DNA of 64,000 bases. Source: an uncultured Chromatiaceae bacterium. Lineage in GTDB: Bacteria > Pseudomonadota > Gammaproteobacteria > Tenderiales > Tenderiaceae. Location: positions 2,075 to 66,074 of the forward strand of contig CALZIQ010000004.1 in assembly GCA_945787735.1 (NCBI GenBank). The letters are read 5' to 3'. The notes under the pieces are model-generated. The model saw nothing but the letters and a program-made list of their open reading frames with translations, was not told the DNA's origin and did not search any database. Shown in pieces: positions 23,950-29,831 of this stretch. Position numbers and translations under genes: made by a program. Every line of letters begins with the position of its first letter. Position 1 is the stretch's first letter.

Positions 23950-25629
23950 ATGGAGCAACTAATCGTTTTACTGCCGGCATTACCGCTTTTCTCAGCCCTT
24001 TTTATTCATGTTTTATCCAGTCAGCTTGGTCGTCGGGTAGCTGATCTAAGCGTTGCGACAGCAGTTTTGGCGTTTATAGTAGCTGCTGTGCTACTGGGGC
24101 TAGCGCTAAAAGGCAATGATGCAAGCCAGGTAGCTATTGGTGGCACATGGGGTGTCTTGCTTGCCGATCCATTAAGCACATTGATGGGAGTGCTTATAGC
24201 CGGTATCAGTCTTATCGTACGCATATACTCAGTGCGATATATGGTAGAGGAGAAGGGTTACGGCCGCTTCTTTATGTTGCTAGATCTGATGACCGCGACA
24301 CTTTTAATCATGGTGGCGGCCGGTGATTTGCTAACTCTGCTAGTGGCCTGGCACTTGATTGGTGTATTGCTTTACTTCTTGCTCGGTTTCGATACGCGCA
24401 GCCAGACTGCAAGCCGCTACGCTTTTTGGACCTTGATAACCTATCGCATCGGCGATTTGGCCTTGGTGTTGGCTGCCGGGCTGTTGTTTCACGCCTATGG
24501 CACTTGGACGTTATCAGAAATCTTTGCACAAATCACAGAAAACCCTGGTGCACATAACTATTTCGGTTTCGCGTTGGAAGAGCTTGTCGGAACACTGCTG
24601 GCCTTCGCTGCCTTTGCGCGCTCTGCGCAATTTTTTCTCCATACCTGGTTGCCTTACACCATGGATGGTCCCACGCCTGTGTCGGCATTGATGCATGCGG
24701 GCATTGTGAATGCAGGTGGTTTTCTGATTAATCGTTTTGCGCCGGTATTTGTTCAAACAGACAGCGTGTTGCACTTATTGTTTGTTGTGGGTTTGGTGAC
24801 CGCGATCATTGGTTCCGTTTTGATGCTGACGCAAAACGATATCAAAAAGGCGCTTGGCTATTCCACCATGGGGCAGATGGGTTTCATGATTATGGAATGC
24901 GGTGTTGGTGCATTCTCACTGGCTATTTACCACTTAATTGCACACGGTCTGTTCAAAGGAACATTGTTCCTTGGTGCGGGCGCCGTCATCAATGAAGCGC
25001 GCGCACATGATGGGGTGCCTAAAGATGATCTATACACCTTTGTTGTAGAGCGACGACCGGCCAAAGTCCGCCAGCCTTGGTTGGTTATGGCGGGGATGAC
25101 ACTGGCCGTGCCGATCATTATTTTGTTTATCGCGCATTGGCTTGTGGCCCAGAATTATTTTCAGCAGCAGGGTGCTATCGTGTTGCTCTTCTTTGGTTGG
25201 GTAACTGGCGCGCAATTGTTATTCACCGCCTACCGTATGGATACACAAAATGTCTGGCGCCTGGTGGGTACGGTGGTTTTTTCATTCGCCGTGATTGTGT
25301 TGGGCTATGCTCTGATCAGCCACGCATTTGATCTATTTTTATACTCAGATCCGGAATTCCGTAGCCAAATTTATGTTGCCGCTGGCATTGACGTATTCTG
25401 GTTCGATGTCCTGGTTGTGCTCACCACCGTAGTCATCGTGGCCGGTTGGGTACTGACCTATTACTCTGAACAAAATGTACTGATCAGTCAAAAGAAAATA
25501 GGCCAAATTTGGTTGGGTTTTTATGCGTTAGTCTCTAGAGAGTTTTACATAATAGATATTTACGCATGGTTGACTCGCACACTGCTAAATGCAGCCGCGC
25601 GACTAAACGTTTTATTGAGGTGGCGCTAA
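23950..25629 (+). CDS. dabB: DabB: NuoL/ND5/MnhA-like proton-conducting membrane subunit of a DAB-type inorganic-carbon pump
   Basis: 559-aa polytopic ORF with 'WLPYTMDGPTPVSALMHAGIVNAGGFL' and 'HLIAHGLFKGTLFLGAGAV'. It lies upstream of a DUF2309 gene. Confidence 0.85.
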   Translation: MEQLIVLLPALPLFSALFIHVLSSQLGRRVADLSVATAVLAFIVAAVLLGLALKGNDASQVAIGGTWGVLLADPLSTLMGVLIAGISLIVRIYSVRYMVEEKGYGRFFMLLDLMTATLLIMVAAGDLLTLLVAWHLIGVLLYFLLGFDTRSQTASRYAFWTLITYRIGDLALVLAAGLLFHAYGTWTLSEIFAQITENPGAHNYFGFALEELVGTLLAFAAFARSAQFFLHTWLPYTMDGPTPVSALMHAGIVNAGGFLINRFAPVFVQTDSVLHLLFVVGLVTAIIGSVLMLTQNDIKKALGYSTMGQMGFMIMECGVGAFSLAIYHLIAHGLFKGTLFLGAGAVINEARAHDGVPKDDLYTFVVERRPAKVRQPWLVMAGMTLAVPIIILFIAHWLVAQNYFQQQGAIVLLFFGWVTGAQLLFTAYRMDTQNVWRLVGTVVFSFAVIVLGYALISHAFDLFLYSDPEFRSQIYVAAGIDVFWFDVLVVLTTVVIVAGWVLTYYSEQNVLISQKKIGQIWLGFYALVSREFYIIDIYAWLTRTLLNAAARLNVLLRWR

Positions 25630-25630
25630 C

Positions 25631-26389
25631 ATGTCAGAAGTGATGCTGCTGTTCGCGGGTTTATTTTTACCGCTGTTCCCGCTAAGTATGGTTTTCAACG
25701 AAATATTTGAGCGCCTACGCGCGCCCAAGTTGCGTATTGCATTATTGATGATATGGCCGCAGTTTGGCCTGATCATCGCACACAGTGCAGGTATCGAAAT
25801 GCCAGATTGGATCATAGTCTGGGCGCTGTTTACCGCAATGCTTTATGGTTTTAGAGTCCTGGCATTGCGTGAAGTAGGTCTATGGACCAGTTTTATGGCC
25901 ACATCAACCTGGGCAGTTTTGTGGCTTACATTGGATAGTAATGCTGGGCTGACCCAGTCGATCTTTTATGCCTTTGGATTTAGCGTGCCACTGGCAATGC
26001 TAGTGCTAATCAGTGGAGAGCTGGAAGAACGATTTGGAGCAGCATACACAGAATTATACGGTGGCCTGGCACTGACGCTGCCTCGTTTGAGCGGCGTGCT
26101 GGTATTTGTGGTATTAGCCATTATTGCCACGCCGTTGTTTCCTGGGTTCGCTGTTATGGTGGTCTCAATTGTTGGCTCCACCGCAAGTTCAATGGCGACT
26201 GCTATGACAGTGGCTGGCATATGGCTGCTGTGGGGTTGGGCGGGGGCCCGCTTACTGCAAGGTTTGATCATCGGGCCAGCCCACGAAGAGACGACCACGG
26301 ACCTCAGTGCCGCGACGGCATGGTTCTATGCGGCAATCTTAGGCCTGTTAGTCATCAGTGGAACATATTCAATAGGTGGCTTGTCATGA
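25631..26389 (+). CDS. Truncated, degenerate Proton_antipo_M (NuoM/N/ND4)-like membrane protein; possible extra DAB subunit
   Basis: 252-aa hydrophobic ORF. 'GLFLPLFPLSMVF' aligns by eye with NuoM 'KMPVVPLHGWL', and 'ERFGAAYTELYGGLALTLPRLSGVLVFVVLAIIATPLFPGF' fits the antiporter C-terminal pattern. It starts 1 nt after the dabB stop, and its stop overlaps the dabA ATG. Confidence 0.55.
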   Translation: MSEVMLLFAGLFLPLFPLSMVFNEIFERLRAPKLRIALLMIWPQFGLIIAHSAGIEMPDWIIVWALFTAMLYGFRVLALREVGLWTSFMATSTWAVLWLTLDSNAGLTQSIFYAFGFSVPLAMLVLISGELEERFGAAYTELYGGLALTLPRLSGVLVFVVLAIIATPLFPGFAVMVVSIVGSTASSMATAMTVAGIWLLWGWAGARLLQGLIIGPAHEETTTDLSAATAWFYAAILGLLVISGTYSIGGLS

Positions 26390-29300: not shown

Positions 29301-29508
29301 TGTCGTAGAGGCACCTTTTGAACATGCTAAAAGCGCAATAGAGTCTGTTGTTACAGTCAAGTATTTGGTACGAAATGGCTGGATTCGATTAATGGTGGTA
29401 GATCCGGAAACAGCAAAAATTTACACATATGAAGATGATGCATGGCACAGTCGTCCGCATGCAGACATCTGTGAAAGCGAATTACCTAAGGAGTCTTGCG
29501 TATCATGA
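26386..29508 (+). CDS. dabA: DabA: DUF2309-family protein, beta-carbonic-anhydrase-like cytoplasmic subunit of the DAB pump
   Basis: 1040 aa from the ATG at 26386. Contains '[15 protein letters not shown]', '[12 protein letters not shown]', '[25 protein letters not shown]', '[16 protein letters not shown]' and '[26 protein letters not shown]'. The track start at 26221 overlaps the previous gene by 169 nt. Confidence 0.9.
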   Translation: [1040 protein letters not shown]

Positions 29509-29831
29509 AAAACCTGAACTTAAGTCTGCTCAAGAAAGTTGAAATAATCCTGGAAGGTGAACACAAAAGATTTGTCACTGATCTGCTGGATCGTGCAGGT
29601 GTTACAGGTTACACGATTGTCAATAACCTCTCAGGTAAGGGTGGTCACGGTTTTCATGAAGGGCACCTTATGTTTAATGAGGATGACGTGTTAATCATGA
29701 TTATCGCAGCCGTTCCTGAAGATCTTGTTGATCCAATCTTAGAGGGGCTGGCGCCCTTCTTCAGCGAACACTCAGGTGTTGTCTTTCTGTCGGACATACA
29801 AGTGACGCGAATGGTGAAATTTCGTGTATAA
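29505..29831 (+). CDS. PII-like protein (carboxysome-associated CPII-like) coupled to dabA
   Basis: 108 aa from the ATG at 29505, which overlaps the dabA TGA (ATGA). 'GVTGYTIVNNLSGKGGHGFH' parallels the SbtB-like paralog. Confidence 0.65.
   Translation: MKNLNLSLLKKVEIILEGEHKRFVTDLLDRAGVTGYTIVNNLSGKGGHGFHEGHLMFNEDDVLIMIIAAVPEDLVDPILEGLAPFFSEHSGVVFLSDIQVTRMVKFRV

Follow-up and report, generated by a model that had tools for sequence, protein, structure and literature searches.

Four adjoining genes on a contig from an uncultured Chromatiaceae bacterium, at positions 23950 to 29831 of the 64,000-nucleotide stretch analyzed here (the window), raise the question of whether they encode a self-contained pump for inorganic carbon and, if they do, which of the known pump types it is and what its two smallest proteins contribute. 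The original prediction for this locus had read it as a DAB-type operon for energy-coupled CO2 hydration with two extra components. Based on profile matches, conserved residues, the predicted fold of one subunit, and comparisons with related loci, we conclude that the four genes very probably specify a vectorial carbonic anhydrase of the DAB1 type and the PII-like protein that goes with it. The four open reading frames (ORFs), taken from an ORF list and from direct reading of the window, lie in the order dabB-dabC-dabA-cpII:

23950..25629, + strand: dabB, 559 amino acids (aa); NuoL/ND5-like membrane subunit, proposed proton conduit of DAB1
25631..26389, + strand: dabC, 252 aa; like the C-terminal half of NuoM/ND4, probably structural
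26386..29508, + strand: dabA, 1040 aa from the ATG at 26386; cytoplasmic beta-carbonic-anhydrase-like catalytic subunit, DabA1 type
29505..29831, + strand: cpII, 108 aa from the ATG at 29505; PII-like, CPII subfamily, probably the sensor/regulator of the module

Identity of the four gene products

The mechanical ORF list gives earlier starts for dabA (26221) and cpII (29496). We prefer the starts at 26386 and 29505 because alignments with orthologues of both proteins begin at the first residue of the 1040-aa and 108-aa forms and because the crystallized CPII is 108 aa long. Direct reading of the junctions agrees with the tight spacing that had been claimed: dabB and dabC are separated by a single nucleotide (TAA-c-ATG), and dabC/dabA and dabA/cpII each overlap at ATGA. 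Shine-Dalgarno-like purine-rich stretches lie within the 3' end of the preceding gene for dabC (GAGGTGG), dabA (AGGTGG), and cpII (AAGGAG). None of the four proteins has a source-given name in the protein collection that was searched. By sequence, the window corresponds to contig CAMYKV010000016.1 of the metagenome-assembled genome GCA_947259155.1.

The 1040-aa product, DabA, matches PF10070 (DUF2309) at profile positions 3 to 747 of 747, with an E value of 2e-253 and 843.6 bits, and the motifs that the original prediction had pointed out in it are present, CIDTRSE at 460 to 466 and GHGS at 718 to 721. The zinc-site residues C460, D462, R464, H719, and C734 are all in place, as is L857, which replaces the usual bicarbonate hydrogen-bond donor. 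DabA also carries two lid motifs (GIAGFFG at 482 to 488 and CP at 505 to 506), an exact match to the DabA1-specific 15-residue motif at 725 to 739, and the 11-residue DabA1 motif at 847 to 857. All of these motifs, those of the zinc site included, are conserved in 62 orthologues. The spacing of the elements equals that of C449/D451/R453, H694/C709, and L825 in the Thermocrinis albus protein (10.64898/2026.05.01.722082). The DabA2 chain 9rd0_A matches the window DabA at 1.7e-95, and it reads NNPHRAGLDCGACAG where the window DabA has the 15-residue DabA1 motif. Conservation among orthologues is poor in the final ~40 residues of DabA.

DabB, the 559-aa product, matches PF00361 (Proton_antipo_M) at 1.4e-50 and also PF00662 (Proton_antipo_N). 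These hidden Markov model matches, together with the zinc site and motifs of DabA, bear out the assignment to DAB-type, energy-coupled CO2 hydration. The best matches of DabB in the PDB by sequence are NdhF/NuoL chains, and DabB2 (9rd0_B) is matched at 6.7e-38. Residues H249, H328/H332/K336, D169, and R166 of DabB correspond to H254, H334/H338/K342, D178, and R175 of Escherichia coli NuoL and are invariant in 66 of 66 orthologues. DabB is a PF00361 membrane subunit with a conserved NuoL-like proton path (the central His and the His/His/Lys of transmembrane helix 11, TM11), as expected of a DAB1 pump.

The 252-aa product of the second gene has no Pfam match. Its NCBIfam matches, to NuoM/MrpD models, are weak and cover only the C-terminal halves of the models (positions ~270 to 490), its phmmer match is to residues 333 to 493 of the mycobacterial NuoM 8e9g_M (E value, 4.5e-4), and a family profile of 71 members aligns to residues 282 to 480 of E. 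coli NuoM. In this profile, the NuoM proton-path residues H322, H348, and E407 are replaced by Thr/Ala, Phe, and Val/Leu. An AlphaFold2 model made with 22 homologues has a pLDDT of 86 and a pTM of 0.87, and its top PDB matches in Foldseek are ND4/NuoM chains, with TM-scores of 0.85 to 0.88 when normalized to the query and ~0.45 when normalized to the target. A score that is high on the query and about half of that on the target indicates that the protein is half of an antiporter-like subunit. This fold comparison is with NuoM/ND4, and the DAB structure met in the PDB searched is that of DAB2 (9RD0). These features agree with the description of T. albus DabC, which is half the size of NuoM and has hydrophobic replacements in place of a proton path, yet is needed for function (preprint 10.64898/2026.05.01.722082). 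A small, half-NuoM-like third membrane subunit that lacks proton-path residues and is encoded between dabB and dabA is a mark of DAB1, and we identify the 252-aa protein as DabC, the third subunit by which DAB1 is defined, corresponding to Hneap_0908 (bioRxiv 10.1101/476713; 10.64898/2026.03.13.711513). It is probably a structural subunit. DabC has 693 relatives, nearly all of ~250 aa, and a profile search over 1.84 billion representatives gave 246 DabC clusters at 50% identity. Some distant relatives (P0238 to P0277) are 380 to 460 aa long, match PF00361, and have the DabC-like part at the C terminus; they resemble transitional forms between a complete NuoM/MrpD-like subunit and a DabC of 250 aa.

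The fourth product matches the Pfam P-II family at 1e-22 (residues 10 to 103), as had been expected of it. Compared with Thiomonas intermedia CPII (PDB 5d4n/5d4l), it is identical at 78 of 104 positions (75%; E value, 3e-48), and both proteins are 108 aa long. A CPII profile gives CPII-type proteins 188 to 222 bits, versus 20 to 38 bits for the SbtB-like PII proteins that these loci also encode, and identity to the SbtB-like PII protein of the window itself (19364 to 19681) is 27%. Judged by these scores, gene 4 belongs to the CPII subfamily, which is distinct from the SbtB and GlnB types. Its T-loop (residues 43 to 61) reads SGKGxHGFHEGHLMFNEDD and hardly varies, distant modules included. Wheatley et al. 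reportedly found in 2016 that bicarbonate enhances the binding of ADP and AMP by T. intermedia CPII.

The identities of the four proteins, the conservation of the catalytic and proton-path residues, the DabC fold, and the conserved gene order and overlaps are all shown by the present analysis. Two other classifications were considered and rejected: the two-component DAB2/MpsAB type, since the operon includes dabC and its DabA has the motif specific to DabA1, and a remnant of Mrp or complex I, since the window has no other Mrp or Nuo subunits and DabA is full.

Conservation of the module in related loci

Related loci were collected in two samples, one of 73 loci from species-representative genomes retrieved with a DabC alignment (DabC anchored) and one of 80 metagenome loci retrieved with a CPII alignment (CPII anchored). 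Both samples favor relatives that have short peptide patterns in common with the query, so the counts given here do not cover the whole family. The order dabB-dabC-dabA-cpII is found in all 65 DabC-anchored loci whose contig extends past dabA; in seven of the other eight the contig ends too early, and the last (L073) has a different architecture. Spacing is conserved as well. In the DabC-anchored sample the dabB-dabC junction is +1 nucleotide (nt) in 54 of 70 loci, the dabC-dabA junction is -4 in 61 of 67, and the dabA-cpII junction is -4 in 54 of 65. The same 4-nt overlap of dabA and cpII occurs in 66 of 74 CPII-anchored loci, and it is kept although the last ~40 DabA residues vary. A junction pattern that recurs in this way across species is more than chance. 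The identity of the orthologues to the window proteins is 73 to 88% for CPII, the most conserved of the four, 56 to 83% for DabB, 54 to 79% for DabA, and 35 to 68% for DabC. In the nearest named relative compared, a Guyparkeria metagenome-assembled genome (MAG), the values are 56% for DabA, 56% for DabB, 39% for DabC, and 77% for CPII.

The association also holds when it is viewed from cpII. The end of dabA lies directly upstream of cpII in 69 of the 70 CPII-anchored loci with enough upstream DNA, and all three dab genes are present in 32 of 33 loci with at least 5.7 kb upstream. The lone exception (L116, 4880 to 6327) has no dabA, and the IS110-family transposase fragment immediately upstream of its cpII suggests that this locus is rearranged. 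As for the two extra, tightly coupled components that had been proposed as a feature of this locus, the tight coupling is real, but the components are not peculiar to it, since DabC and CPII are found in every comparable locus examined.

Of 72 loci, only 26 have carboxysome or cbbL genes at a distance of 8 kb or less. Since gene order and junctions are conserved while so few of the loci have carboxysome genes nearby, the four genes behave as a portable module. One locus (L078, 5312 to 11158) has a complete dabB-dabC-dabA-cpII set whose surroundings are free of carboxysome and RuBisCO genes for 7 kb, and its neighbors include TauE, a toxin-antitoxin pair, and an aldo-keto reductase, a context which indicates that the module is not tied to carboxysome loci. 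The module is also present in two Actinomycetota MAGs (L062 and L063), and among cultivated relatives in Nitrococcus mobilis Nb-231 and Thiohalobacter thiocyanaticus. DAB2-type paralogues occur in five loci, with neither DabC nor a PII protein beside them. Another locus (L077, 504 to 5469) encodes a 438-aa PF00361 protein, a "long DabC," followed by DabA and P-II; the PII proteins of L077 and L078 both score as CPII type.

Two loci differ in gene structure. L073 (6216 to 12822), from a Desulfobulbia MAG, has an 857-aa ORF that consists of DabB and a DabC-like C-terminal part, then a 941-aa DabA, and no PII gene; the gene that follows DabA carries a GSGKTTLLN P-loop and looks like a CobW/COG0523 zinc-chaperone GTPase by its sequence. 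In L018 (8657 to 12025), from a low-coverage MAG (~2x), DabA and CPII are read as one ORF. About 190 nt are lost in frame, and with them ~55 residues at the C terminus of DabA and 7 at the N terminus of CPII; the ORF is either a natural DabA-CPII fusion or a misassembly.

The near-obligate adjacency of CPII and DAB1 in both directions, the overlap that is conserved despite a poorly conserved DabA C terminus, and the near-invariant T-loop lead us to propose that CPII most likely regulates the DAB1 pump. A more specific version, to which we would give an even chance, is that CPII is misnamed as "carboxysome associated" and is instead the dedicated regulatory fourth subunit of DabC-type DAB1. In this version its T-loop would dock on DabA or on the cytoplasmic face of DabB/DabC and control CO2 hydration in response to bicarbonate and ADP/AMP in the cytosol, making the pair the equivalent of SbtB-SbtA for DAB, and the four genes would be a portable, self-regulating cassette, also outside carboxysome loci and in nonproteobacterial hosts.

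Neighborhood of the operon

Upstream of the operon, on the same strand, lie cbbL, cbbS, csoS2, and csoSCA and the csoS4 and csoS1 shell genes. The shell genes end near 17055 and the operon begins at 23950, in agreement with the distance of about 7 kb that had been given. Further genes upstream on this strand encode ferritin-like and pterin-dehydratase-like proteins, SbtA and a PII-like protein, a LysR regulator, a CsoS1D-like protein, and a ParA/McdA-like protein. The features that bear on the operon are as follows:

18306-19681, + strand: sbtA and PII-like gene pair; SbtA matches PF05982 at 5e-113, and the PII-like gene is at 19364-19681, with PDB matches that include SbtB
22359-23087, + strand: ParA/McdA-like ATPase gene, followed by a 51-aa ORF with an ATGA overlap
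23087-23242, + strand: 51-aa low-complexity ORF, ending ...KRVWPD
23243..23949: noncoding gap before dabB, 707 nt, AT-rich; presumed promoter/operator region

The SbtA pair is ~5 kb upstream of dabB, and of 72 related loci only 5 have SbtA at a distance of 8 kb or less. With this second uptake pair present, each uptake system of the locus has a PII-type protein of its own. The KRVWPD end of the 51-aa ORF presumably corresponds to the C-terminal Trp signature of alpha-carboxysome McdB positioning proteins, which it resembles. A Nudix hydrolase gene on the opposite strand (21582 to 22133) breaks the otherwise codirectional cluster of CO2-concentrating genes, and a convergent pair of genes for an extracytoplasmic function sigma factor and its anti-sigma factor (30185 to 31031) lies directly downstream of cpII and closes the cluster.

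The gap at 23243 to 23949, unusually long at 707 nt, contains no ORF of note, and a repeat search of it found only short, chance-level repeats and one 16-nt palindrome at 23750 to 23775. Rfam searches, made at E values of ≤1 for 17000 to 31500 and at gathering thresholds for the entire window, gave no RNA family, and no riboswitch or leader is supported. In close relatives, dabB begins ~150 nt after csoS1D; because their gap is much shorter and the upstream gene differs from that in the window, no conserved element is implied in the 707-nt gap.

Function, alternatives, and relation to known systems

In the mechanism that we propose, DabB and DabC would sit in the cytoplasmic membrane, DabB as the NuoL-like subunit and DabC as the half-NuoM-like subunit, and DabA would dock on their cytoplasmic face, where its buried beta-carbonic-anhydrase zinc site would hydrate CO2 that has diffused into the cell. 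Protons flowing down their gradient via DabB would drive conformational changes or access-channel remodeling in DabA, making hydration one way, so that bicarbonate would accumulate in the cytosol and feed the neighboring alpha-carboxysome for use by CsoSCA and RuBisCO. DabC would be a required structural partner with no proton path. CPII, made from the same message by coupled translation, would be a trimeric sensor of adenine nucleotides and bicarbonate, most likely throttling the pump according to bicarbonate or energy state.

The heterotrimer, the coupling to proton motive force, and the rescue of carbonic-anhydrase-free E. coli in this scheme are taken from orthologues and would apply here by analogy. 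DAB1 has been described as three genes that adjoin the carboxysome operon, with a P-II gene within that operon (10.1101/476713). Accumulation of dissolved inorganic carbon that depends on proton motive force, or rescue of carbonic-anhydrase-free E. coli, has been shown for orthologues (PMC7714395; 10.1101/476713; 10.64898/2026.05.01.722082), and the rescue was achieved by the three-gene DAB1 (PMC7714395). The preprint on T. albus DAB1 (10.64898/2026.05.01.722082) reports that DabABC is a heterotrimer by electron cryomicroscopy, that DabC is essential, and that carbonyl cyanide m-chlorophenyl hydrazone abolishes uptake. The expectation that all four products assemble stoichiometrically therefore stands in part: it is reported for DabA:DabB:DabC in the T. 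albus complex, but this does not include the PII protein, which the three-gene DAB1 can do without (PMC7714395).

Several points weigh against our reading of the operon as a working DAB1 pump with CPII as its regulator. The locus is known here from sequence alone. From 22000 to 30600, promoter-like hexamers are no commoner than in shuffled sequence, and there is no convincing promoter; a scan of the same range found no intrinsic terminator after cpII, and folding of 29825 to 29975 gave a z score of +1.08, with no stable hairpin. In DabB, the NuoL TM5 Glu (E144) is replaced by His (H135) and the TM7 Lys (K229) by Arg (R224); the E144 column is His in 57 of the 66 orthologues, and the K229 column is Arg in 65 of them. 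In complex I, E144 and K229 of NuoL form the regulatory ion pairs. The replacements fit the published statement that DabB is without the ion-pair motifs of complex I (10.64898/2026.03.13.711513). At the column of NuoL K399, the window DabB has Gln versus Lys in 54 orthologues, but the stretch after TM11 aligns poorly, and so this difference should not be overinterpreted. As for CPII, the activity of the three-gene DAB1 in E. coli without it (PMC7714395) places it outside the catalytic core. The symmetry of a PII trimer also finds no evident counterpart in a 1:1:1 DabABC complex, as it does for SbtB in trimeric SbtA. No experiment on an interaction between CPII and DAB was found in the accessible literature, and according to a 2021 review, control of a transporter by such a regulator had then been shown for SbtA only.

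The alternative that fares best against this reading, though we consider it doubtful, is that CPII does not regulate the pump: it would be cotranscribed for convenience and act on another target (such as the carboxysome, RuBisCO activation, or a LysR-type regulator), and the "system" would consist of three genes. The activity of DAB1 without PII in E. coli fits this explanation, as do the lack of any mention of a PII partner in the DAB1 structure preprint, the origin of the name CPII in a link to carboxysome loci, and the presence of a LysR gene and a second PII-like gene near the operon in the window. However, it does not account well for the position of CPII after dabA in 65 of 65 and 69 of 70 loci, mostly with the 4-nt overlap, nor for its consistent absence beside DAB2 paralogues. 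Also against it, carboxysome genes are as near as 8 kb in no more than 26 of the 72 loci, a distant module (L078) stands in a noncarboxysome context, and a T-loop that is near invariant even in distant modules fits a single conserved partner.

It is very improbable that the complex is mainly a Na+/H+ cation transporter or a generator of membrane potential, as was first proposed for the NuoL-like MpsA of Staphylococcus, with bicarbonate accumulation as a secondary effect. DabB does belong to the Mrp/complex I antiporter family, and a 2021 review (PMC8438413) still listed the choice of H+ or Na+ as coupling ion as open. However, the beta-carbonic-anhydrase zinc site of DabA is complete, and orthologues need this site for function (10.1101/476713). 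Genes of the CO2-concentrating mechanism surround the locus, with no other Mrp or Nuo subunits present, and preprints on orthologues report loss of function in mutants of the DabB proton path and strict coupling of the site (10.64898/2026.05.01.722082; 10.64898/2026.03.13.711513). Slimmer still is the prospect that the operon is a decayed or silent paralogue and that carbon uptake rests on the SbtA/SbtB pair 5 kb upstream: a second uptake system is indeed present in the locus, and in Halothiobacillus neapolitanus, disruption of DAB1 gave a weaker fitness defect than disruption of DAB2 (10.1101/476713), but a pseudogene was rejected here because none of the four frames is broken, the catalytic and motif residues are all conserved, the proteins share 54 to 88% identity with orthologues across many species, and the Shine-Dalgarno-like sites and overlaps are kept.

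We conclude that the operon is an intact copy of the already described DAB1 machine together with its usual CPII and is ordinary for carbon-fixing bacteria of this kind. Its likeness to the DAB1 pumps of H. neapolitanus and T. albus was judged from published sizes, motifs, and numbering. In H. neapolitanus, DAB1 consists of Hneap_0907 (DabA1), Hneap_0908 (DabC), and Hneap_0909 (DabB1), in the same B-C-A order as in the window; DabB is 559 aa long in both (10.1101/476713), and DabA is 1046 aa long compared with 1040 aa here. DabA1 of H. neapolitanus and T. albus has the same motifs (a 22-residue motif and DWxxxRPEWGL) and the same zinc-ligand spacing, and DabC is likewise a half-NuoM without proton-path residues. 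The H. neapolitanus locus, like the window, lies near the alpha-carboxysome operon and has P-II and ParA genes in its neighborhood. The window differs in that its host is an uncultured gammaproteobacterium and that a 707-nt gap and an mcdAB pair precede dabB, whereas H. neapolitanus has a continuous 11-gene operon.

Other systems share parts of this design. DAB2 of H. neapolitanus (PDB 9RD0), Tcr_0853/0854, and MpsAB have the same DabA/DabB core and are proposed to carry out vectorial CO2 hydration coupled to proton motive force, but they have two subunits only, without DabC, and no adjacent PII gene; DabA2 (827 to 870 aa) is also shorter than the window DabA. The CPII protein of T. intermedia K12 (PDB 5D4L/5D4N/5D4O/5D4P/5DRK/5DS7) has the same length, and in relatives its gene has the same position. 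Cyanobacterial SbtA/SbtB, in which a protein for inorganic-carbon uptake is encoded next to a small PII-like sensor of adenine nucleotides that regulates it, is a functional analogy for DAB1 and CPII, although SbtA is a Na+/HCO3- symporter of another transporter family with another substrate, and its trimer matches the PII trimer. The cyanobacterial NDH-1MS/MS' complexes (NdhF3/NdhD3/CupA) likewise pair NuoL-like and NuoM-like subunits with a cytoplasmic zinc protein for vectorial CO2 hydration. These complexes differ from DAB1 in that they are redox driven within a full NDH-1, CupA is unrelated to DabA, and NdhD3 is full length whereas DabC is half.

These results settle the annotation of four genes in the window, including a dabC gene whose product has no Pfam family. 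The comparative counts indicate that DabC-type DAB1 pumps, and not carboxysomes, are what CPII accompanies, and that its gene nearly always has a translational overlap with dabA. A role of CPII as dedicated regulator of DAB1 would concern the whole family and not this window in particular. If CPII does gate DAB1, this would be the second PII-like control of inorganic-carbon uptake after SbtB/SbtA, and it would matter for efforts to move DAB pumps into crop plants or industrial hosts, in which uptake without regulation wastes membrane potential.

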